From an uncultured Bacteroidota bacterium (GTDB lineage: Bacteria; Bacteroidota; Bacteroidia; Flavobacteriales; Flavobacteriaceae), in the NCBI GenBank assembly GCA_902593165.1, contig CACJHI010000005.1, positions 9,238 through 73,237 of the forward strand: DNA of 64,000 bases. The letters run 5' to 3'. The position numbers and the translations under genes were made by a program. Positions 36,927 to 50,579 of this stretch are shown here, one piece after another. Below the pieces are notes generated by a model. It worked only from the letters and a program-made list of their open reading frames with translations. It searched no databases and was not told where the DNA came from. Numbering within the stretch: position 1 is the first letter of the stretch; the number at the start of each line of letters is the position of its first letter.

Positions 36927-39266
36927 TTATTTATAAGATCTAGTTTTAACTTCTATTTCTTCATATTTAAGATCTTCTTTGTGGAGCTTAGCATCTGATG
37001 GTTCCCCAACATATTCCCAAGCTGAGACAAATTTGAAATTCTTATCATCTCTAATAGCCTCTCCATCTTTAGTTTGATACTCTTCTCTAAAATGACCACC
37101 ACAGGATTCGTTTCTTTCTAATGCATCTTTTGCAAATAACTCACCCAGTTCAAGGAAATCTGCAACTCTAACTGCTTTAGCAAGCTCCTCATTATATTCG
37201 CCAACCTTACCAGTAACATTTACATTTTTATAGAAATCCTTTCTTAATTTTTTAATTTCATTAATTGCATCGACTAAATCATTTTGATTTCTTGACATAC
37301 CACATTTATTCCACATAATCTTTCCTAATTTTTTGTGATAATAATCAACTGAGTTTTTCCCTTTATTAGATATTAGCTTTAAAAGCAAGTCTTGAACTCC
37401 TTTTTCACTTTCTTCAAATTCTTTACTATCAGTACTGATTTTACCTGTACTAATGTCATCAGATAAATAGTCTCCAATTGTATAGGGAAGAACAAAATAC
37501 CCATCCGCTAATCCCTGCATTAAAGCAGAAGCACCTAGCCTATTTGCTCCGTGATCTGAAAAATTTGCTTCACCTATTGCAAAACATCCAGGAATTGTTG
37601 TCATTAAGTTATAGTCTACCCAGACACCACCCATTGTGTAATGAACAGCTGGATAAATTTTCATTGGCATAACATATGGATCTTCATCTAATATTTTCTC
37701 ATACATCTGGAAAAGGTTACCATATTTTTGTTTTATAATTTCTCTACCTAATTTTTTTACTGTCTCAATATTATTCTCATCTTGACCATTAATTAACGCC
37801 TTCTCCTTACCATATCTAATAATTGCATGGGAGAAGTCTAAGTATACAGCCTCTCCGGTTTTATTAACTCCAAAACCATTATCACATCTTTCCTTAGCAG
37901 CTCTTGAAGCAATATCCCTTGGAACAAGATTTCCAAATGCAGGGTATCGTCTTTCTAAATAATAATCTCTATCTTCTTCCTTTATATCAAGCGGTGACAA
38001 CTTACCTTCTTGTACTAGTTTAGCATCAGTTAAATCTTTTGGCACCCATATTCTTCCATCATTTCTTAATGATTCAGACATTAGAGTTAATTTTGACTGA
38101 TAATCACCTGATACTGGAATACATGTTGGATGAATTTGAGTAAAACAAGGATTAGCAAAGTAAGCTCCTTTTTTATGAATCTTCCATGATGCGGTCACAT
38201 TACTTCCCATAGCATTTGTAGATAGATAAAAAATATTTCCATATCCACCAGAAGCAATTACAACTGCATGAGCTGAGAACCTTTCAAGTTTACCCGTAAC
38301 ATGATTTCTTGCTATTATACCTCTTGCTTTGCCATCTATTTTCACGAGATCCATCATCTCATGTCTGCTGAACATCTCTATTTTACCTCGAGCAATTTGC
38401 CTGTTCATTGCTGAATAAGCACCTAAAAGTAATTGTTGCCCTGTTTGTCCTTTAGCATAAAAAGTCCTTGAGACTTGAACTCCACCAAAAGAACGATTAT
38501 CAAGAAGTCCTCCATAATCTCTTGCAAAGGGTACTCCTTGAGCAACACATTGATCAATTATATTACCGGATACTTCAGCTAATCTATACACATTTGCCTC
38601 TCTTGACCTGTAGTCTCCTCCTTTGATAGTATCATAAAAAAGTCTATAGTCTGAATCTCCATCACCTTGATAGTTTTTAGAGGCATTTATACCTCCTTGA
38701 GCAGCAATTGAGTGAGCTCTCCTAGGAGAATCCTGAAAACAAAAAGCTTTAACATTATAACCTAACTCAGCTAGAGTTGCAGAAGCAGATGCACCAGCTA
38801 AACCTGTACCAACAACAATTACGTCAATATTTCTCTTATTTGATGGACTAACAAGGTTAATGCTACCTTTGTGGGATTCCCATTTTGAGGAAAGAGGGCC
38901 ATTAGGTACTTTTGAATTTAAAGTGGATTTAGTTTTAATATTTTTAATCTCATTATCTAACAGCTTAGTAATTTCAAATTCCGATTTTAATTTTTCAGGT
39001 GTAAGAGGTTCTTTTTTTGCTTCAAAAGCATTTATAATGTTCTCAAGCTGAGATTTTATTGCCTTTATCTTTCTATTTTTTAAACCAGCTTCTTTATCAG
39101 ATGATTTTACTTTCTTTTTATCAAAGCACCAATTTTTATTATTAACCTTTAAACTGCAGAAAACCTTTGTTCTTTTATTATTGATATGATATATAAAAAA
39201 AGGTGAGACATGGTCATCTTTGCCATCTTTATACTTTATGTGCTTCTCTGTAAGATATAATCCCAT
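36927..39266 (-). CDS. sdhA: Succinate dehydrogenase/fumarate reductase flavoprotein subunit with a ~113-aa non-SdhA N-terminal extension
   Basis: From residue ~116: [80 protein letters not shown]. The only in-frame ATG/GTG/TTG upstream of the conserved N-terminus is the ATG at 39266. Confidence 0.9.
38928..39266 (-). other. Tyrosine-integrase Arm-DNA-binding-like segment fused in frame to sdhA (probable mobile-element remnant)
   Basis: [61 protein letters not shown] follows the pattern of Bacteroidota integrase N-termini (e.g. IntDOT: CPLMGRITLDGKVAQFSLKEDIHPDRWDSKQGRA...LNQKIEQYKQEI, from memory). Confidence 0.5.
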
Positions 39267-42921: not shown

Positions 42922-44211
42922 ATGAAATATACTCCACTCAGTAATTCAGTATATAAAAGGAACAGAATTAATTTCATGAATGAAATGAAGGGGAACTGTT
43001 TGGCTGTCTTCAACTCTAATGACATATATCCAGTAAGTGCAGACTCTGAACTACCTTTTGAACAACATAGAGATATTTTTCATCTATCTGGTATTGATCA
43101 AGAAGAAACTATTTTATTACTATATCCTCCATCAAAAGATGATAAAACAAGAGAAATACTTTTTATAAGAAAATCTGACAATCATACTAAAGTATGGGAA
43201 GGTGAGAAATTAAGTAAAAAACAAGCAAATGAACTATCTGGTATTGACAACATATACTATATAGAAGACTTTAAGGCTGTCCTTAGTTCAATTGCAACTA
43301 AAGTTGATACTTTTTATATAAATAAAAATGAGCATTATAGAGCAAACTCTCCTGTTGAGACCAGAGAAGATAGATTTATTTCATGGCTTCTAAAAAAATA
43401 CCCTGCTCACAATGTTGCAAAAAGCAATCCTATACTTCAAAGACAGAGATCAATAAAGCACCCTCATGAAATTGATCAAATAAAAAGAGCATGTGGAATA
43501 ACAAGCAAGGGGTTTAATAGAGTATTAAAATTTATTAAACCTGATATCTGGGAATATGAAATTGAAGCAGAGTTCATCCATGAATTTATTAATAATTCAT
43601 CAAAAGGTTTTGCATATTCTCCAATCATTGCCAGTGGTAATGACAATAATGTACTTCACTATATAAAAAATAACAAGCAATGTAAAAGTGGGGAATTAAT
43701 ATTAATGGATGTTGGAGCAGAATATGGTAATTATTCAAGTGATATGACACGAACTGTTCCTGTTTCAGGAAAGTTTTCAAAAAGACAAAAGGAAATCTAC
43801 GATGCTGTTTTAAGAGTTAAGAATGAAGCAACTAAACTTTTAACTGTTGGTAACAATTGGAAATTATTTCATGAGCAAGTAGGTGAAATTATGACAGCTG
43901 AGCTGATAAAAATTAAATTATTAGATAAAGTTGATATAAAAAATGAAACAAAAAAGAATCCTGCTTACAAAAAGTATTTTATGCATGGAACTTCTCATCA
44001 TTTAGGTCTTGATACACATGATTATGGACTATTGGAAGATCCTTTTCAAGAAAATATGGTTTTTACAGTTGAACCTGGTATTTATATTCCTGATGAAGGG
44101 TTTGGAATAAGGCTTGAAGACGATGTAGTAATTCAAAGTAAGGGTGAACCTATAAACCTAATGAAGGATATACCAATTGAGCCAGACCATATTGAAGAAT
44201 TGATGAATTAG
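42922..44211 (+). CDS. pepP: Xaa-Pro aminopeptidase (M24B)
   Basis: LMDVGAEYGNYSSDMTRT, HGTSHHLGLDTHD, VFTVEPGIY, GIRLEDD metal ligands. Confidence 0.85.
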   Translation: MKYTPLSNSVYKRNRINFMNEMKGNCLAVFNSNDIYPVSADSELPFEQHRDIFHLSGIDQEETILLLYPPSKDDKTREILFIRKSDNHTKVWEGEKLSKKQANELSGIDNIYYIEDFKAVLSSIATKVDTFYINKNEHYRANSPVETREDRFISWLLKKYPAHNVAKSNPILQRQRSIKHPHEIDQIKRACGITSKGFNRVLKFIKPDIWEYEIEAEFIHEFINNSSKGFAYSPIIASGNDNNVLHYIKNNKQCKSGELILMDVGAEYGNYSSDMTRTVPVSGKFSKRQKEIYDAVLRVKNEATKLLTVGNNWKLFHEQVGEIMTAELIKIKLLDKVDIKNETKKNPAYKKYFMHGTSHHLGLDTHDYGLLEDPFQENMVFTVEPGIYIPDEGFGIRLEDDVVIQSKGEPINLMKDIPIEPDHIEELMN

Positions 44212-44873
44212 TTTGATTCTTCTTTTTTTAAAATCTTTATGTCACTTATTAAGTTATCCATTACATCATTATCCGTACCATCATAAAAACCTCTGATTCT
44301 TCTTTTAGAATCAACTAATACAAAATTTTCAGTATGTATCATATCATATTGAATAGGGCTTTCAATATCTTCTGCAACTAGATATGACTTTCTAGCTAAA
44401 TTATAAATCTGTTTTTTGTCTCCTGTAACCATATTCCATTTAGAGTCTATTACTCCTTTTTCTTGAGAATATTTTTTTAAAACAGAAACTGAATCAATTT
44501 CTGGTGTAACAGTATGAGATAGAAGCAAAACATTATCATCATTAATGAACTCATTTTGTAGTGTAATCATATTTTCTTTCATGATTGGGCAAATACCTGG
44601 GCATGTTGTGAAGAAAAAGTCTGCTACATATATTTTTCCATCATAGGTTTCATTGGAAACTACTTCATTGTTCTGATTTATTAATGAGAAGTCATCAATT
44701 TTGTGAAATCTTTTTATATGCTGAATTGTGCTATCAACTAACTGAAACTTTACCATATTAGGTTGATATATAGGTAGTTTCTTTTCAGGCGTCAACACAT
44801 TATAGAACATGAAAATAGCTGCTAACGATATAGTTAGCATAACAGAAGCAAAAAGACCATACCTTTTTAACAT
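44208..44873 (-). CDS. SCO1/SenC family copper chaperone / thiol-disulfide protein
   Basis: FFFTTCPGICP (CxxxC) and TH...D motifs. I prefer ATG 44873 (MLKRYGLFASVML TM anchor) to the TTG at 44897. Confidence 0.8.
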   Translation of the reverse strand: MLKRYGLFASVMLTISLAAIFMFYNVLTPEKKLPIYQPNMVKFQLVDSTIQHIKRFHKIDDFSLINQNNEVVSNETYDGKIYVADFFFTTCPGICPIMKENMITLQNEFINDDNVLLLSHTVTPEIDSVSVLKKYSQEKGVIDSKWNMVTGDKKQIYNLARKSYLVAEDIESPIQYDMIHTENFVLVDSKRRIRGFYDGTDNDVMDNLISDIKILKKEESN

Positions 44874-44950
44874 ATTTTTTTTATTTGGGGATAACAAAGA
44901 TAATTCAAGGAATTAAAAAAATATTAAATTTGCAGTTCAAAAATTAAAAT

Positions 44951-46273
44951 ATGTTTTCACCAGAATTTTTTATCAAAGCAGGACAATTGTTATTATCATT
45001 ATCCATTTTGATTGCATTACATGAGCTTGGCCACTTTATTCCTGCAAGAATATTTGGATGTAGAGTTGAGAAATTCTATCTATTCTTCGATGTAAAATAT
45101 TCTTTATTTAAAAAGAAAATTGGTGATACAGTATATGGAATTGGTTGGTTACCACTTGGTGGTTATGTAAAGATCTCGGGTATGATTGACGAAAGTTTTG
45201 ATAAAGAGCAAATGCAAAAACCACCTCAACCATGGGAGTTTAGATCAAAACCTGCATGGCAAAGACTAATTATTATGCTTGGTGGGGTAACTGTTAATTT
45301 ACTTCTTGGATTCTTTATTTACATGATGGTTCTATTTGTTTGGGGGAAAGAAACACTTCCGCAAGAAAACATACCTCTTGGTCTAGAGCCTTCTGCTTTC
45401 ATTCAAGAAATAGGTTTTGATAAAGGTGATAAAATAATTGATGTAGATGGTGAGGAGTTAGACTTCGTTTTAGACATAAACAGGATGTTACTTTTAAGGC
45501 CAGTTGATAAAGTAAAAGTTGAGAAACTTGATGGTACTATTTCTGAGATTAAAATCCCAGAAAATATTGGTAATGATATATTCCAAAGTGGACAGATAAG
45601 TAGTTTTACTCCTTTATTTAGTGCTACTATAGACTCTGTCTACAATGACTCTCCTGCACTGTATGCAGGGATGCAATCTGGAGATATAATTGTGTCAATA
45701 AATGGAGAAAGCATTTATGACTGGGGAGATTTCTCAAATTGGATAGATAATAATCCTGATGATATAATAGATGTTGAAGTTGAAAGAGGAAACTCTATTT
45801 ATAAATTAAATATTGATAGAAATGATGATGGAACAATTGGAGTTTTGAGAAGAAATGGAATTAAAACTATAAATAAAAAACTTGGTATATCTGAGAGTAT
45901 TGTTCAAGGATTTAATTACGGATATTGGACCCTATATGAGTATGTTGCTGGATTTTCATTTGTTTTCACAAAAAAAGGAGCATCACAGCTTGGTGGTTTT
46001 GGAACAATTGGTAATATCTTCCCTGCAAAGTGGGATTGGAAAGGTTTTTGGTTATCAACTGCTCTTATATCTATTATTCTAGCTTTTATGAATGTATTGC
46101 CAATTCCTGCTTTAGACGGTGGGCATGTAATGTTTCTTTTATATGAAATGGTCTCAGGAAGAAAGCCTAGCGATAGATTTATGGAAGTCTCAACTATGAT
46201 TGGATTCTTTATTTTAATTGCCATTGTTCTTTACGCAAATGGAAATGATATAGTCAGGGCTTTTGCTAACTAA
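44951..46273 (+). CDS. rseP: RIP metalloprotease RseP (site-2 protease, M50)
   Basis: HELGHF, PDZ region, NVLPIPALDGGH. Confidence 0.9.
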   Translation: MFSPEFFIKAGQLLLSLSILIALHELGHFIPARIFGCRVEKFYLFFDVKYSLFKKKIGDTVYGIGWLPLGGYVKISGMIDESFDKEQMQKPPQPWEFRSKPAWQRLIIMLGGVTVNLLLGFFIYMMVLFVWGKETLPQENIPLGLEPSAFIQEIGFDKGDKIIDVDGEELDFVLDINRMLLLRPVDKVKVEKLDGTISEIKIPENIGNDIFQSGQISSFTPLFSATIDSVYNDSPALYAGMQSGDIIVSINGESIYDWGDFSNWIDNNPDDIIDVEVERGNSIYKLNIDRNDDGTIGVLRRNGIKTINKKLGISESIVQGFNYGYWTLYEYVAGFSFVFTKKGASQLGGFGTIGNIFPAKWDWKGFWLSTALISIILAFMNVLPIPALDGGHVMFLLYEMVSGRKPSDRFMEVSTMIGFFILIAIVLYANGNDIVRAFAN

Positions 46274-46328: not shown

Positions 46329-48359
46329 TTAGAAATTATATTTCAATCCGATAGAAATATTTCTTCCTAGCCCAGCTATTCCAGATTCTTTTAATCTAGA
46401 TAAGTGATCATAATATTCAGTATCAAATACATTATCTACACTCCAGAAAATATCTAGATCATTATCTAAGAAAGATGTTCTCCAATTTCCAGAAAGATTT
46501 AAAAGTGAATATCCATCAGTCTCTTCTTCAAACTGAGAAATTCTGCTTTGTTTTGCCTTAGCTACAAAGTCAATTTCAAGAGAATAATTTTCTGAAAAGT
46601 CTAAGTTAAAGACTTGCTTAAATGTTAATGGAGCTATGAATGGAAGTGGATCACCATCAGCTGATTCTCCACGAATATACTCAAGAGATGTGTTAGAGCT
46701 CAACCATTCAATTCCTGTTTGTTTTGAGTAATTTATCTCAGAACCATATAATGTTGCATCTTGTTGCATAAAATTATATAATTTATATCCAGATACCATC
46801 TCGTTCGAGGGAGCCACATAAATGTAGTTAGATATATCATTAAGGAATATATCAAATGTAAGAGATGAGCTCTCACTCATCAAGTCAAGAGATATTTCAC
46901 TTTGAAAGCTTGTCTCAGACTCTAGATTAGGATTACCTTTTTCATATCTAAAGGTCCCATGATGAACTCCGTCAGCAAATAACTCAATTAAGTTTGGCGC
47001 CCTATATCCTGAACCTAGGTTTAGTCTTAAGGATGAGTTTTCAAAATTTCTCTTTAATCCAATTGAACCATTGAAATTTGAAAAATCAGCAGCTCCTTTT
47101 TCAGATGTTATAGATCTTGAGTCATATCTAACACCAATTAAAGCTGAACCATTCTCCATCGTAATCTGTCCTAACCCATATAATCCAAAATCATTCATAT
47201 CTGCATCTGGAATTAATTCTTCGTGACCAAAGTTTTTATTCTCTTGTGAGAGTATGTTAGTACCTAATATCATATTGAAGTTATCAGACTGAGGCATCGT
47301 TAAAGCAACATCAACTGTATTTGTTGTTAATTCCATGTCAAGTTCTGCTCCACTTCCACCGTGACCGTGATCATCGTGATCATCGTGGCCTTCATGATCA
47401 TCATGATCATCGTGGCCTTCCTCTTCACCATGACCGCCAAACTCTTTTCTTTCGTTAAATTGTCTACCTAGTGTTATTTCAAGATCATGATTGTTTCCAA
47501 GATCAAAATTATTCTTCCAAGTTAACATCGTATGCGATAACTCCTGATAATGACCTTCGTGATCATCATGGCCCTCGTGATCATCATGGCCCTCGTGATC
47601 ATCATGGCCCTCTTCCCCTTCAGGAATTCCTAATTCAGAAATATTTACTGAAAGTCTAAGATCAGATGAGAATTTTTCAGATTGATACTTTAAACCTCCC
47701 TGAAAATCATATTCCTTTAACCAAGTATTTTCAACTTCTCCATCAGGTGTTGAGAAGTTTTGATTGTCAGTCATATTTCCTCTTAATACATAAGAAAAGT
47801 CTCCTGAACCTCCCTTTAATCCTAAATTATTTGTAATACCGCTGTAATTGGAATTATAAATTCCCATATAATCAACAGAGAAATCATCAGAATACCTTTC
47901 TGGCTCAATATATAATACTCCACCCATGGCATCACTTCCATAAAGAACATATGCTGGACCTTTGATTAATTCAACAGAGCTAATACCAGAAGTTGAAACA
48001 CCTACTCCGTGCTCATCTCCCCATTGATGATTCTCTAACCTTACCCCTTGAGAATAAATTATTACTCTGCTTGCACTAAGCCCTCTAACGGATGGTTTTG
48101 CAATTCCAGGCCCTGTTGTTATTAAGCTAATTCCTGGAAGCTTAGATATTGATTTACTTATGTACGATCTTAGAATTGGGTTAATACTGTTTAGGTTGAT
48201 TTTATTTACTTTAATAACAGACTTTCCACGATCTTGATTAAAAGGCAGAGATAAGATAATTTCATCTAACTCTACAGTGTCAGCATTCGTTTGTGAAAAA
48301 GAAGCCTGAGAAATTAATAGCATTGAAGCTAATAGACTATAAATATATTTTTTATTCAT
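46329..48359 (-). CDS. TonB-dependent receptor with two His/Asp/Glu-rich insertions (ZnuD-like candidate metal receptor)
   Basis: Signal peptide MNKKYIYSLLASMLLISQASFSQ (the second Met of the ORF is preferred), plug LIKGPAYVLYGSDAMGG, C-terminal GRNISIGLKYNF. Inserts: EGHDDHEGHDDHEGHDDHEGH and GHGEEEGHDDHDDHEGHDDHDDHGHGG. Confidence 0.85.
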   Translation of the reverse strand: MNKKYIYSLLASMLLISQASFSQTNADTVELDEIILSLPFNQDRGKSVIKVNKINLNSINPILRSYISKSISKLPGISLITTGPGIAKPSVRGLSASRVIIYSQGVRLENHQWGDEHGVGVSTSGISSVELIKGPAYVLYGSDAMGGVLYIEPERYSDDFSVDYMGIYNSNYSGITNNLGLKGGSGDFSYVLRGNMTDNQNFSTPDGEVENTWLKEYDFQGGLKYQSEKFSSDLRLSVNISELGIPEGEEGHDDHEGHDDHEGHDDHEGHYQELSHTMLTWKNNFDLGNNHDLEITLGRQFNERKEFGGHGEEEGHDDHDDHEGHDDHDDHGHGGSGAELDMELTTNTVDVALTMPQSDNFNMILGTNILSQENKNFGHEELIPDADMNDFGLYGLGQITMENGSALIGVRYDSRSITSEKGAADFSNFNGSIGLKRNFENSSLRLNLGSGYRAPNLIELFADGVHHGTFRYEKGNPNLESETSFQSEISLDLMSESSSLTFDIFLNDISNYIYVAPSNEMVSGYKLYNFMQQDATLYGSEINYSKQTGIEWLSSNTSLEYIRGESADGDPLPFIAPLTFKQVFNLDFSENYSLEIDFVAKAKQSRISQFEEETDGYSLLNLSGNWRTSFLDNDLDIFWSVDNVFDTEYYDHLSRLKESGIAGLGRNISIGLKYNF
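47367..47420 (-). repeat. 27-bp x2 imperfect tandem repeat encoding EGHDDHDDH
   Basis: GTGATCATCGTGATCATCGTGGCCTTC followed by ATGATCATCATGATCATCGTGGCCTTC (25/27 identical). Confidence 0.85.
47557..47610 (-). repeat. Perfect 18-bp x3 tandem repeat encoding (EGHDDH)3
   Basis: TCGTGATCATCATGGCCC repeated three times without a mismatch, in frame. Confidence 0.9.
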
Positions 48360-48415
48360 TTTATGTTTTTTAATTTTTATTTGGTGCATTTTTTTGCTTT
48401 ACACAAAGCTTAAAG

Positions 48416-48444
48416 ATTACCTCCTCACTATGTAAGGAGGTAAT
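48416..48444 (-). other. Intercistronic hairpin between the mini-lipoprotein gene and the receptor gene
   Basis: 9-bp stem ATTACCTCC / GGAGGTAAT with an 11-nt loop; possible attenuator or processing site. Confidence 0.35.
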
Positions 48445-48454
48445 AATTTGATTG

Positions 48455-48592
48455 TTAAGATTTAGCTACATAAGCAATGTGGTCATGATCGTCATGGTCG
48501 TCATGATCATGGTCATCATGATCATCTTTTCCACAAGAAACCACTGCTAGAGTAACAAAAGTAAACATCAATAGGTATAAATATTTTTTCAT
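48455..48592 (-). CDS. Unannotated 45-aa mini-lipoprotein with a 16-residue pure Asp/His tract
   Basis: Own translation: MKKYLYLLMFTFVTLAVVSCGKDDHDDHDHDDHDDHDHIAYVAKS, ATG to TAA. Lipobox VVSC. Immediately upstream of the His-rich receptor on the same strand. Confidence 0.6.
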   Translation of the reverse strand: MKKYLYLLMFTFVTLAVVSCGKDDHDDHDHDDHDDHDHIAYVAKS

Positions 48593-48624
48593 AATTATTT
48601 AAATTTTAATATGTTAATATGAAA

Positions 48625-48648
48625 TATTAGATTAAGCGAAATCTAATA
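48625..48648. promoter_or_regulatory. Palindrome TATTAGATT-N6-AATCTAATA upstream of the mini-lipoprotein gene
   Basis: Perfect 9-bp arms with a 6-nt spacer. Lies 33 nt upstream of the ATG at 48592 and 17 nt downstream of the stop of the 109-aa ORF. Either an operator or a terminator. Confidence 0.35.
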
Positions 48649-48664
48649 GTAAATTAAATAGAAA

Positions 48665-48994
48665 TTAGACCAGACTTGGTGGCCCTCTATTTGGCAGAAT
48701 ACTAAATTCAGTATTTAATAATAGTTCATTATACTGATTAAAAGTACTTTTGAAATAGTGAGATATATATGATTCGTATGAGTGATTTAAGAAAAAGTCT
48801 AAGTCGTCTTCTTGAATTGAAAATAAAGATATTTTACAATGAACTTCAGATTCATGAACACTTATGTTTTCTTCAATTGAAATATCATGTGAGTCATGTA
48901 TGGCATGAAAAGCTTCAACTACTGTGGGCAACAGTAGAGAAATTAATAGAATATAACTAAAAAAATTTCTCACTTTGTATATCAAATATAGCAA
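48665..48994 (-). CDS. Hypothetical N-terminally anchored His-rich protein
   Basis: 109 aa. TM segment FFSYILLISLLLPTVV, then EAFHAIHDSHDISIEENISVHESEVHC. Same strand as the receptor module. Confidence 0.45.
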   Translation of the reverse strand: MLYLIYKVRNFFSYILLISLLLPTVVEAFHAIHDSHDISIEENISVHESEVHCKISLFSIQEDDLDFFLNHSYESYISHYFKSTFNQYNELLLNTEFSILPNRGPPSLV

Positions 48995-49040
48995 TAAGAT
49001 TAAACTTAAATGTAAAAAAAAATTTATATTTGCCGACTAT

Positions 49041-49114
49041 TCCTCCTTAGCTCAGTTGGTTAGAGCATCTGACTGTTAATCAGAGGGTCCTTGGTTCGAG
49101 TCCAAGAGGGGGAG
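49041..49114 (+). tRNA. tRNA-Asn (anticodon GTT)
   Basis: Cloverleaf read by eye: acceptor TCCTCCT/AGGGGGA, D-arm AGCTCAGTTGGTTAGAGC, anticodon loop CTGTTAA, T-arm CTTGGTTCGAGTCCAAG. CCA is not encoded. Confidence 0.9.
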
Positions 49115-49127
49115 CAAGTAAAATGAT

Positions 49128-49443: not shown

Positions 49444-50175
49444 TTATTTTTTCTTTAAATTTCTAAATAGTTCACTTAGAAAAATTGCAATAGCATTTGC
49501 AACATTTAAACTCTCCGCTTTATTATCTCCTTCCCTAAATTGAGGTATAGCCAACTCACCTTCTAATTTGCTTAGTAATTGTCTTGATATTCCATGAGAC
49601 TCACTTCCAAAAACAAACGAGGCTTTATTTGGCATTTGAGTTGAGTATATAGAATCTCCAGTTAAAGTAGCTCCATAAATTGGTTTTTGCATTGAAGATA
49701 ATGTAGTTCCAAGGTCATCAACATAATGACACTTCACCCTTGATATTGAACCCATTGAAGCCTGGATTACTTTGGCATTGAAACAATCAACAGAGTTATT
49801 ACTACATATCAATTCAGATAATCCAAACCAGTCACACAATCTTATAATAGTTCCAAGGTTTCCTGGATCACTAATACCGTCAACACCAATAGTAATAGGT
49901 TCAGATATTATTTCTTTTGAATCAGGTAAAACGAATATCCCCAAGGCTTGGCTAGGTGTTTTAAAATTTGAAATCTTCTTCATCTCATCTGAAGTCAAAA
50001 GTTCAGAATCTGGATGGAAATTTTCTTCAGTAGAAAATATATTTTTAAACGGCCAACCTGAATTTATTAATTCATTTACAACTTTTTTTCCTTCAGCTAC
50101 AAAAAGCTTGTTAGCCAAACGGTGCTTTTTTTTTTCTAATTGCAGAATTAATTTACGTTGATTATGAGAAAGCAT
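49444..50175 (-). CDS. TrmH/SpoU-family RNA 2'-O-methyltransferase
   Basis: SDPGNLGTIIRLCDWFG, FGSESHGIS, LNVANAIAIFL. Start at MLSHNQRKLI preferred. Confidence 0.75.
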   Translation of the reverse strand: MLSHNQRKLILQLEKKKHRLANKLFVAEGKKVVNELINSGWPFKNIFSTEENFHPDSELLTSDEMKKISNFKTPSQALGIFVLPDSKEIISEPITIGVDGISDPGNLGTIIRLCDWFGLSELICSNNSVDCFNAKVIQASMGSISRVKCHYVDDLGTTLSSMQKPIYGATLTGDSIYSTQMPNKASFVFGSESHGISRQLLSKLEGELAIPQFREGDNKAESLNVANAIAIFLSELFRNLKKK

Positions 50176-50180
50176 AAAAG

Positions 50181-50579
50181 TTATGATGTACAACAATTCT
50201 CATCATCACATCTACAATACTTCAAATTATATATGTGAAGACAAATTAATGAGGATGCTGACAGATAAGTTGCTGTTTCAGGAATAGAGAGGATTCCTAG
50301 ACTTTCATTTATAATTAAACCTGATAATACAGCCCAGAAGAGATATAGAAAGACCCTAATAAATCTATTGGATGAATTTTTAACTGAATAATAAATAGCG
50401 ATAAATGAAATAAAAAGAAAAATATAGTTAATGATAAACCATGGTAATGTAAAATCTACTGAAATAAAAATCAAAGAAGACTGAGACAAAAAGAGAAATG
50501 GTGTTGCAAAACAATGCAGCATACAGAGCCCTGATGATACAGCACCTATTTGATCGGAATTTTTAATAATTACCTTCAT
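50181..50579 (-). CDS. MerC-domain membrane protein with a C-terminal Cys cluster
   Basis: IGAVSSGLCMLHCFATPFLF (MerC-like C-x-x-H-C), 4 TM, tail YCRCDDENCCTS. Confidence 0.6.
   Translation of the reverse strand: MKVIIKNSDQIGAVSSGLCMLHCFATPFLFLSQSSLIFISVDFTLPWFIINYIFLFISFIAIYYSVKNSSNRFIRVFLYLFWAVLSGLIINESLGILSIPETATYLSASSLICLHIYNLKYCRCDDENCCTS

Follow-up and report, generated by a model that had tools for sequence, protein, structure and literature searches.

We analysed a 64,000-nucleotide (nt) window of contig CACJHI010000005.1, from an uncultured member of the Flavobacteriaceae, and describe here a small operon on its minus strand that may encode an outer-membrane metal-uptake system. The strand carries three open reading frames (ORFs), at 48665-48994 (TTG start, 109 aa), 48455-48592 (45 aa) and 46329-48389 (686 aa), which we refer to as the upstream ORF, the mini-ORF (the gene of an Asp/His mini-lipoprotein) and the receptor gene. 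The original prediction, made from the DNA of the window, was of three same-strand genes; all three ORFs are present and are conserved in uncultured marine Flavobacteriales. The three-gene observation is far beyond chance, because the frame of the mini-ORF is conserved, the inserts of the receptor are conserved in distant relatives, and the tetrapeptide RGPP is unique in the window (once in the 21,870 residues of its long ORFs, in the upstream ORF). All three Asp/His tracts (two receptor inserts and the mini-ORF tract) are built, at the DNA level, from short tandem repeats that keep the reading frame. The mini-lipoprotein is potentially a new component, and the receptor and the upstream ORF extend known classes. 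Coordinates of the features are collected in Table 1.

The TonB-dependent receptor and its Asp/His inserts

The third gene encodes a ZnuD-like TonB-dependent receptor with a plug and a 22-strand barrel. Both Pfam domains pass their cut-offs (PF07715, Plug, 49.5 bits against 23.9; PF00593, barrel, 129.3 bits against 27), and translation probably begins at ATG 48359 (MNKKYIY...), since homologues begin at that position. About 1,900 relatives are detectable, with 1,943 matches across the receptor clade; marine metagenomes supply the closest of them (69-97% identity). Among species-representative genomes, those with at least 37% identity belong to uncultured marine Flavobacteriales ('AG-...' single-cell genomes, Cryomorphaceae MED-G11 and Candidatus Marisimplicoccus), with one cultured species, Urechidicola vernalis, among them.

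The best solved relative in the PDB is ZnuD, the TonB-dependent zinc receptor of Neisseria (E = 8e-13 with a single sequence and 3e-15 with a profile), followed by OprC and FepA. The high-affinity zinc ligands of ZnuD are Asp-99 and His-100 together with Glu-340 and His-499, and its loop 3 (residues 233-309) holds two His/Asp/Glu clusters likened to a 'fishing net' (PMC4557270). In a phmmer alignment of the receptor with ZnuD, read with a 14-residue numbering offset, E126, H127 and H476 occupy three of these four ligand positions and are invariant in 37 homologues; the equivalent of Glu-340 falls in an unaligned stretch of the receptor. Like ZnuD (PDB 4RDR/4RDT; PMC4557270), the receptor has His/Asp/Glu clusters on a predicted flexible extracellular loop, and its acidic-His pair in the plug and a His in the barrel align with ligands of the ZnuD site. 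The relationship is nevertheless distant (51 bits pairwise). The clusters of the window receptor are much longer than those of ZnuD, are encoded by repeats and are split over predicted loops 3 and 4, no Zur box lies in the leader, and a lipoprotein partner and an arrest-peptide leader are both missing from the ZnuD system.

Both His/Asp/Glu insertions claimed for the receptor are confirmed. The first contains EGHDDH three times, which in the DNA is a tandem repeat of 18 nt, x3.1 and perfect (47557-47612), and lies opposite the ZnuD loop-3 cluster-1 region in the phmmer alignment, with low posterior confidence. In the region of the second, the receptor carries GHGEEEGHDDHDDHEGHDDHDDHGHGG, with a 27-nt x2 repeat at 47368-47420. 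The original prediction had raised the possibility that the inserts map to periplasmic turns. In the AlphaFold2 (AF2) model there are 22 strands and every periplasmic turn (odd-even connection) has 2-5 residues, and the strand map places the inserts in loops 3 and 4, so that both are predicted to be extracellular; a hairpin between them inside one long ZnuD-like loop 3 would leave them outside the cell all the same. In relatives down to 37-41% identity, the composition of the inserts is kept and their length varies. With ZnuD as the top solved relative and the inserts on predicted surface loops, the ZnuD-like reading made earlier is strengthened.

The receptor could also import haem or another His-ligated chelate, with the Asp/His elements binding haem iron. 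The top NCBIfam model is that of TonB-hemin receptors (TIGR01785; full-length match, 140.8 bits against a cut-off of 316.85), which matches as well as the ZnuD model (NF038289; 138.8 bits against 950, near full length, residues 23-686 against 12-685 of 685), and YRAP...HH...NPNL is kept, which together with the plug His fits what we take to be the haem-receptor signature. ZnuD itself resembles haem receptors (PMC4557270), which also speaks for haem. However, the scores lie far under both curated cut-offs, so that the receptor is a member of neither family, and long Asp/His/Glu tracts are typical of zinc systems. There are no haem-utilisation genes among the neighbouring ORFs scanned, and the upstream sensor has a His/Cys motif of the metal type. 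We therefore hold haem import to be highly improbable. The cut-off of the OprC-type copper receptor model is not reached either (TIGR01778; 70.5 bits against 472).

A family of Asp/His mini-lipoproteins

The mini-ORF translates as MKKYLYLLMFTFVTLAVVSC|GKDDHDDHDHDDHDDHDHIAYVAKS, and its product can be written as MKKYLYLLMFTFVTLAVVSC-GK-DDHDDHDHDDHDDHDH-IAYVAKS. It comprises a lipobox (VVSC; Cys20 codon at 48533-48535), an Asp/His tract (48479-48526) built from 9/15-nt repeats (48480-48526) and the tail IAYVAKS. The tract has 16 residues, and its composition of ten Asp and six His is exactly that counted previously. A tryptic peptide of the operon is DDHDDHDHDDHDDHDHIAYVAK.

Its conservation marks the mini-ORF as a real family of genes. 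Searching protein sequences recovered 73 clusters of 29-73 aa, the frame is conserved in 12 species-level genome loci, and the earlier doubt about whether the mini-ORF is conserved is thereby answered. It is called by independent gene callers (one sequence occurs on up to 414 contig-collection blocks); where it has a name this is almost always 'hypothetical', and elsewhere it is missed altogether. The alignment shows a lipobox with an invariant Cys, a near-invariant C-x-K-[DE]-D, an invariant terminal H-D-H and a short hydrophobic tail. The Asp/His tract varies in frame between about 4 and 18 residues, with one of the 73 clusters frameshifted (P0170), and in the signal peptide 44% of the differing codons are synonymous and replacements are hydrophobic for hydrophobic. 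A DNA pattern for DHDHIA[FY]V gave 68 matches in 185,579 species genomes, ten of them true mini-ORFs of the first of the two operon types described below (type 1), all in Bacteroidota metagenome-assembled genomes; none of these approximately ten genomes is a cultured isolate.

The sequence VVSC|GKDDH fits the lipoprotein export signal (LES) C-X-K-(D/E)2-X, the optimum established by experiment in Capnocytophaga, which suffices to bring a periplasmic lipoprotein to the cell surface (PMC5080379). Thus, we infer that the mini-lipoprotein is surface-exposed, and a role as a lipid-tethered 'fishing line' is plausible. Alternatively, it could face the periplasm from the inner leaflet of the outer membrane and serve as a tethered metal acceptor or buffer, much like the His-rich loop of ZnuA. 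ZnuA is periplasmic and uses Asp/His loops, and the case for surface exposure rests on a motif that the acidic start of the tract could mimic by composition. Yet C-x-K-[DE]-D is held where the tract varies and is also found on the 181-aa lipoprotein of the second operon type, and the LES is sufficient for surface exposure in a flavobacterial relative (PMC5080379). A periplasmic location is in our judgement improbable.

No characterised counterpart of the mini-lipoprotein was found by a literature keyword search, which is not proof of absence. Like the SusD, BtuG and HmuY types of partner, it is an LES lipoprotein encoded beside a TonB-dependent transporter and presumably captures substrate. 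Those partners are roughly 20-60 kDa. They are folded and bind their substrates in pockets, whereas the mini-lipoprotein is a 26-residue low-complexity lipopeptide, and it has no detectable homology to these families, only sub-threshold matches (Pfam DUF4972 and DUF1980; NCBIfam lipoprotein N-termini). Pfam and NCBIfam scans assigned no family to it or to the 181-aa partner lipoprotein. A further likeness is to ZnuA and PA4063, in which disordered His/Asp-rich segments capture zinc with low affinity and hand it over; these loops sit in folded soluble proteins, whereas the tract of the mini-lipoprotein is nearly the whole mature polypeptide and is lipid-anchored. A precursor of a ribosomally synthesised and post-translationally modified peptide, or of a methanobactin-like compound, was rejected on account of the lipoprotein signal in place of a leader peptide and of the lack of a modification enzyme among the scanned neighbours. 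ZepA, of the cyanobacterial exoprotein zinc system, is unrelated and is absent from Bacteroidota.

At each locus examined, an RGPP upstream ORF precedes the mini-ORF and the gene of a ZnuD-related receptor follows it, and these loci fall into two operon types. In type 1 (the window, L002, L006, L009-L014, L024, L144, L151 and L157), the mini-ORF carries the tail IA[YFM]V and is directly upstream of a ZnuD-like receptor with Asp/His loops. In type 2, the mini-ORF tail is [SM]A[IL][IV][IV]...N[IL]A, and the order is RGPP upstream ORF, mini-lipoprotein, a 181-aa lipoprotein (CSKDD, no Pfam family) and a receptor of about 800 aa with an N-terminal carboxypeptidase-regulatory-like domain (CarboxypepD_reg). 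The type-2 receptor is 24% identical to the window receptor, has ZnuD as its sole solved relative and keeps a GPDH plug motif and a DGLHH barrel motif; it is without Asp/His inserts. The original prediction had proposed a survey for such mini-ORFs beside receptors elsewhere in Bacteroidota, and the gene indeed recurs in two operon types, one of which has a receptor without the loops. Asp/His tracts thus come as loops in cis, as a lipopeptide in trans or as the two together, which is the best comparative argument for the lipopeptide working with the receptor. Type-2 loci (L077-L084 and L153-L156; e.g. L081:5624-9863) are found in uncultured Flavobacteriaceae. A gene for a YhhN-family membrane protein comes next, except in L077-L080 and L155-L156, and is followed in most loci by genes for a Rieske protein and a second receptor.

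Downstream of the mini-ORF stop codon lies a strong 13-bp hairpin (Table 1). A strong hairpin of unrelated sequence stands at the equivalent place in seven other loci, type-2 operons included, and begins 10-15 nt past the mini-ORF stop in all eight loci folded. In lineages without the mini-ORF the hairpin is absent, or a remnant is kept (L005). No convincing separate promoter was seen for the receptor gene. Most simply, the hairpin is a partial terminator or attenuator, or a 3' stabiliser, that would raise the lipopeptide message over the receptor message. The constant hairpin and the very short ORF, in a leader region behind another regulatory ORF, would also fit a mini-ORF that is a cis-regulatory leader controlling a terminator-like hairpin, with a functionless peptide. 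However, the lipobox Cys, the export signal and the tail, none of which has a role in attenuation, are conserved over two subfamilies and operon types, and a 45-aa peptide would barely leave the ribosome before termination. Moreover, lineages that lack the mini-ORF also lack the hairpin, as expected of a gene with its own 3' structure. We regard the leader explanation as very unlikely. Between this hairpin and the receptor start there is a second small hairpin, GCTTT-GTGT-AAAGC (48396-48409, minus strand); the motif AAGCTTTG..AAAGC also occurs in L002, L005 and L024 and is altered in L011 and L013.

The upstream ORF and the leader region

The upstream ORF most likely starts at GTG 48973 and encodes 102 aa, because most close homologues have this length and begin with MRN; the earlier length of 109 aa (TTG 48994) is not supported by them. 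In 28 aligned flavobacterial members, R96, P98 and P99 of the C-terminal RGPP are invariant; the other conserved parts are a hydrophobic N-terminus with Pro16, H23, H29, a frequent H-x-H, and C46, and nothing else. R[GA]PP stands 1-5 residues (mostly three) ahead of the stop in approximately 40 Flavobacteriia proteins. In 23 of 25 flavobacterial loci the receptor is preceded by a small ORF with R-[GA]-P-P plus 1-5 residues at its C-terminus (one of the two exceptions, L019, is truncated upstream). Such an ORF is also present in all type-2 operons, where gene callers mostly do not call it. Such ORFs also precede distant receptors in Gammaproteobacteria, SAR86, Alphaproteobacteria, Acidobacteriota and Longimicrobiales. 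These small CXXC...RAPP/RGPP ORFs from outside the flavobacteria, Kordiimonas among their sources, occur in L036-L072 (e.g. L056:4621-4926, L064:3715-4011 and L037:3866-4270).

The stretch from C46 to R96 is free in sequence and fixed in length. It spans 46-49 residues in Flavobacteriia, and the Cys-to-Arg spacer spans 43-47 residues in 17 of 19 RAPP proteins encoded ahead of related receptors in Gamma- and Alphaproteobacteria, Acidobacteriota and SAR86; in the window it is 49 residues, or 46 from the position of the second Cys, as compared with 45 from the second Cys in CruR. Many Flavobacteriia members have CXXC at the sensor Cys (CSTC, CVLC, CEIC), which the window clade replaces with CKIS (CxxS), and type-2 upstream ORFs have H-x-D/N in its place. 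The AF2 model of the protein is unstructured (pLDDT, the model's own confidence measure, 45).

RGPP and RAPP arrest ribosomes in many contexts, with RGPP the strongest (PMC12992588). In many bacterial phyla no tetrapeptide is avoided as much as RGPP, and all through the Gram-negative bacteria small secreted ORFs with a C-terminal RGPP or RAPP are over-represented upstream of TonB-related genes (PMC12992588). One example is CruR (Bp2923, DUF2946) of Bordetella pertussis, an exported first gene product of about 145 aa in a TonB-dependent-transporter operon. Its CXXC (90-93) and its RAPP (139-142, three residues short of the C-terminus) stand at conserved spacing (PMC9426467). Copper, via the CXXC, relieves arrest at RAPP, leading to Rho-dependent termination before the receptor gene (PMC9426467); during the arrest, the P and A sites are occupied by the two Pro codons (PMC12992588). 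In Rhodobacter capsulatus, CutF (also DUF2946) detects copper in the periplasm while it is being exported co-translationally, and it stalls at a Pro-rich motif at its C-terminus, melting a stem-loop that hides the ribosome-binding site of the next gene (bioRxiv 10.1101/2025.02.05.636593).

Similar to CruR, the upstream ORF is a small, apparently exported first gene before a TonB-dependent transporter, with a ligand motif about 45-49 residues before R[AG]PP and an unstructured body. It differs in being negative for PF11162, in having RGPP rather than RAPP, in a His-rich sensor with a single Cys (CxxS), in its AT-rich host from a phylum without reported DUF2946 and in the lipoprotein gene interposed before the receptor. 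With CutF it shares the scheme of a nascent exported metal sensor with a C-terminal Pro-rich motif and a stem-loop before the next gene. CutF, however, turns on a copper-detoxifying oxidase at high copper, whereas the genes downstream in the window are for uptake, and the inverted repeat in the window does not cover the next start codon. DUF2946 has been reported from Proteobacteria and from a small number of further phyla, Bacteroidota not among them (PMC9426467). Pfam and NCBIfam gave no family for the upstream ORF and five flavobacterial relatives, and PF11162 (DUF2946) had no match to them even at E<=10. The Pfam model appears to under-detect the class, because only one of ten ORFs scanned from other phyla gave a match, sub-threshold and proteobacterial (13.7 bits, E = 0.11). 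An hhalign comparison of the flavobacterial proteins with RxPP proteins of other phyla aligned the last 11 columns (92% probability), and we therefore make no claim of whole-length homology. Homology left aside, we think it likely, by analogy, that the upstream ORF works like CruR and CutF. It would be a variant of a recently recognised regulatory class already noted before TonB genes, forming a Pfam-invisible, His-rich RGPP branch.

The first gene had originally been read as a membrane-anchored protein for metal capture. In a related view its product is a stable, His-rich metal-binding protein, either anchored in the membrane or periplasmic, and acts as a chaperone to which the receptor passes metal; its hydrophobic N-terminus, conserved His and Cys and conserved position beside the receptor could be cited in favour. 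Roughly half of the protein, though, is kept in length and not in sequence and is predicted to be unstructured. The sole invariant C-terminal feature is the strongest known arrest tetrapeptide, placed as in CruR, and CruR itself is not detectable as a protein (PMC9426467). The capture reading is disfavoured by the invariant RGPP near the stop, the fixed sensor spacing, the unstructured, unconserved body and the place as first gene before TonB-dependent receptors in several phyla, and a chaperone seems to us quite improbable.

About 65 nt separate tRNA-Asn from the upstream ORF, and within them each strand has a single TATATTTG box that is kept from locus to locus; TATATTTG is presumably the Bacteroidota-type -7 promoter consensus. 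The box on the opposite strand, its mirror image, serves tRNA-Asn. In all loci the start codon of the upstream ORF lies 4-16 nt downstream of its box, a distance that points to an mRNA with no leader or almost none. The region 48981-49040 is a very compact divergent promoter region that tRNA-Asn shares with the upstream ORF, and its conservation between loci is high.

Past the stop codon of the upstream ORF there is an inverted repeat at 48625-48648 (9-bp arms, free energy -6.9 kcal/mol, z -2.2). A repeat occurs at this position in every lineage, with arms that differ: ATTAGATT/AATCTAAT, TTAGATCA/TGATCTAA, TTAGTTATT/AATAACTAA and TAATTC/GAATTA. The palindrome had been offered as a possible Zur/Fur box. 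It is real, but a comparison of the leaders of 12 loci showed no conserved sequence, and the reading as a Zur box is not supported; these leaders contain no recognisable Zur/Fur operator, only the two -7 boxes and the sequence-variable inverted repeats. Because its place is kept while its sequence changes, an RNA-level element fits better than a conserved Zur operator, and the repeat may be a weak RNA hairpin or an operator. In Rfam at a permissive threshold the tRNA is the sole match in the leader region, with no riboswitch. The 3' half of the upstream ORF and the spacer (48840-48620) are G-poor, with C>G; this recalls the rut region (Rho site) of CruR, which in an AT-rich genome is only suggestive.

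Proposed mechanism, metal and genomic surroundings

A reading to which we give about even weight is a three-part, post-transcriptionally regulated outer-membrane metal-uptake operon. The signal/anchor of the upstream ORF would bring the growing polypeptide to the membrane, where the His/Cys motif would meet metal. The ribosome would arrest at RGPP three codons before the stop, metal occupancy would decide between hold and release (by analogy with CruR and CutF), and the arrest state would set the expression of the downstream genes. For uptake, the logic would presumably be that scarce metal keeps the stall and hence the operon on. The mini-lipoprotein would be processed to a lipidated 26-residue peptide, located at the surface as suggested by C-x-K-D-D. 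Its Asp/His tract could bind divalent metal weakly and reversibly, raising the concentration at the mouth of the receptor, and the conserved hydrophobic tail may dock the lipopeptide to the receptor. Loops 3 and 4 would then collect the ion and deliver it to a buried ZnuD-type site (E126/H127 in the plug, H476/H477 in the barrel), from which TonB energy would move it into the periplasm, as ZnuD suggests. The joint claim that the lipopeptide is a trans metal antenna interchangeable with barrel loops, and that the upstream ORF is a His-based zinc-sensing arrest peptide, is tentative, and we would sooner doubt it than rely on it.

As the substrate we favour Zn(II), at or just short of an even chance. 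Zinc is indicated by the ZnuD-type ligand set with its loop clusters, by Asp/His chemistry like that of ZnuA-type loops and by a sensor that moves from CXXC toward His/Asp precisely in the clades with the Asp/His lipopeptide. Copper is a possible second choice, and other substrates make up the remainder. A system of the same architecture with copper as both substrate and signal would have a CruR-type sensor and supply copper, for example to cytochrome oxidase via SCO1. Both characterised members of the upstream-ORF class sense copper; in Bacteroidota, however, RGPP/RAPP ORFs are reported to be absent before copper-related genes (PMC12992588), which counts for zinc. OprC is the second-best solved relative, but the receptor contains no Cys and lacks the CxxxM/HxM site of OprC. 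The CXXC is kept in many Flavobacteriia members, but the CxxS of the window clade and the H-x-D/N of type 2 lead away from soft Cu(I) ligands. The SCO1/SenC gene lies two genes from the receptor in conserved synteny, but an oppositely oriented gene stands between them. The copper-supplying receptor TccA of Caulobacter, with a predicted two-His site, provides a precedent; against copper, it is ZnuD with which the Asp/His clusters agree, as does the site made up of Asp/Glu-His and a further His. We consider this copper version unlikely, but the most serious of the rival explanations.

Several observations weigh against a zinc-uptake operon of the proposed kind. The AF2 model of the receptor has a pLDDT of 49.6, because the alignment is shallow (37 sequences, mean identity 79%), so only its strand map was used. 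Both inserts are lost in 640-aa receptor variants that are 78-79% identical (L003:5016-6950 and L004:5016-6938; e.g. P0060). The mini-ORF is absent beside many loop-bearing receptors (L005, L007, L008 and L015-L027) and is therefore dispensable. There is no Fur-family regulator or ZnuABC transporter among the ten neighbouring ORFs scanned. To these are added the low ZnuD-model score and the equally good haem-model match, the lack of a Zur/Fur operator in the 12 leaders, the Pfam-negative upstream ORF with its 11-column hhalign match and its CxxS in place of CXXC, the copper sensed by CruR and CutF, and the SCO1/SenC synteny. Regarding the two variant loci, L003 and L004 are without the mini-ORF, and L004 retains the RGPP upstream ORF.

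If the joint claim of a trans antenna and a zinc-sensing arrest peptide holds, all other known surface-lipoprotein partners would be far larger than the antenna of about 26 residues, whose function would be present in cis as loops in type-1 receptors and in trans alone in type-2 operons, and the CruR/CutF mechanism, so far known for copper in Proteobacteria, would gain a new metal and a new phylum. Should the lipopeptide capture metal, it would follow that a TonB-dependent transporter can leave substrate capture to a lipopeptide that is minimal and disordered, and this would provide a very simple, synthesisable model of metal capture at the surface. The absence of a visible Zur-type operator would be explained if the upstream ORF were a His-type metal arrest peptide. 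Trace-metal acquisition by the abundant, streamlined marine Flavobacteriales is poorly understood. For annotation, small RGPP/RAPP ORFs before receptors are better labelled regulatory leaders than metal-binding membrane proteins.

Table 1. Features of the operon and its immediate surroundings (positions in the window)
Feature	Position	Strand	Remarks
tRNA-Asn	49041-49115	+	divergent from the upstream ORF
Candidate promoter box TATATTTG	48983-48990	-	read from sequence; conserved in L002, L006, L009-L013, L024
Upstream ORF	48665-48973	-	102 aa, GTG start (most likely); N-terminal signal/anchor, His/Cys motif, spacer, RGPP-SLV-stop
Sensor region HAIHDSHDISIEENISVHESEVHCKIS	48827-48907	-	residues 23-49; H23, H29, C46 invariant or nearly so (28 members)
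RGPP motif	48677-48688	-	AGA GGG CCA CCA; three codons ahead of the stop
Inverted repeat ATTAGATT-N6-AATCTAAT	48625-48648	-	starts 17 nt past the upstream-ORF stop
Mini-lipoprotein gene	48455-48592	-	45 aa; signal peptide, lipobox, export signal, Asp/His tract, tail
13-bp hairpin	48416-48444	-	starts 10 nt past the mini-ORF stop; free energy -21.3 kcal/mol, z -5.7
TonB-dependent receptor	46329-48359	-	676 aa from ATG 48359 (probable start); 686 aa from ATG 48389
Plug apical-loop E126-H127	48009-48014	-	in invariant WGDEHG; align to ZnuD Asp-99/His-100
Insert 1 EGEEGHDDHEGHDDHEGHDDHEGH	47553-47624	-	residues 256-279; between predicted strands 5 and 6 (extracellular loop 3)
Insert 2 GGHGEEEGHDDHDDHEGHDDHDDHGHGGSGA	47346-47438	-	residues 318-348; between predicted strands 7 and 8 (extracellular loop 4)
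H476-H477	46959-46964	-	between YRAP and NPNL; H476 aligns to ZnuD His-499
RseP site-2 protease	44951-46273	+	3' side of the receptor
SCO1/SenC (copper chaperone family)	44208-44897	-	3' side of the receptor

The flanking genes are of the housekeeping kind and encode SCO1/SenC, RseP, a SpoU/TrmH methylase and a MerC-family protein; a Xaa-Pro peptidase, called by eye from its translation with no family scan, also neighbours the operon. The gene order of SCO1/SenC and RseP is the same in L157 and L158. On the operon strand and directly upstream of it, past the divergent tRNA-Asn, the gene of the MerC-family membrane protein (50181-50579, minus strand) overlaps that of the SpoU/TrmH-type RNA methylase (49444-50196, minus strand) by 16 nt, and MerC is possibly tied to metal transport here. 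Elsewhere in the window, an SdhA-like flavoprotein ORF (36927-39266, minus strand; 779 aa) matches the integrase Arm DNA-binding domain PF17293 at residues 21-94 (E = 5.5e-8), probably by reading through an upstream remnant ahead of its true start.

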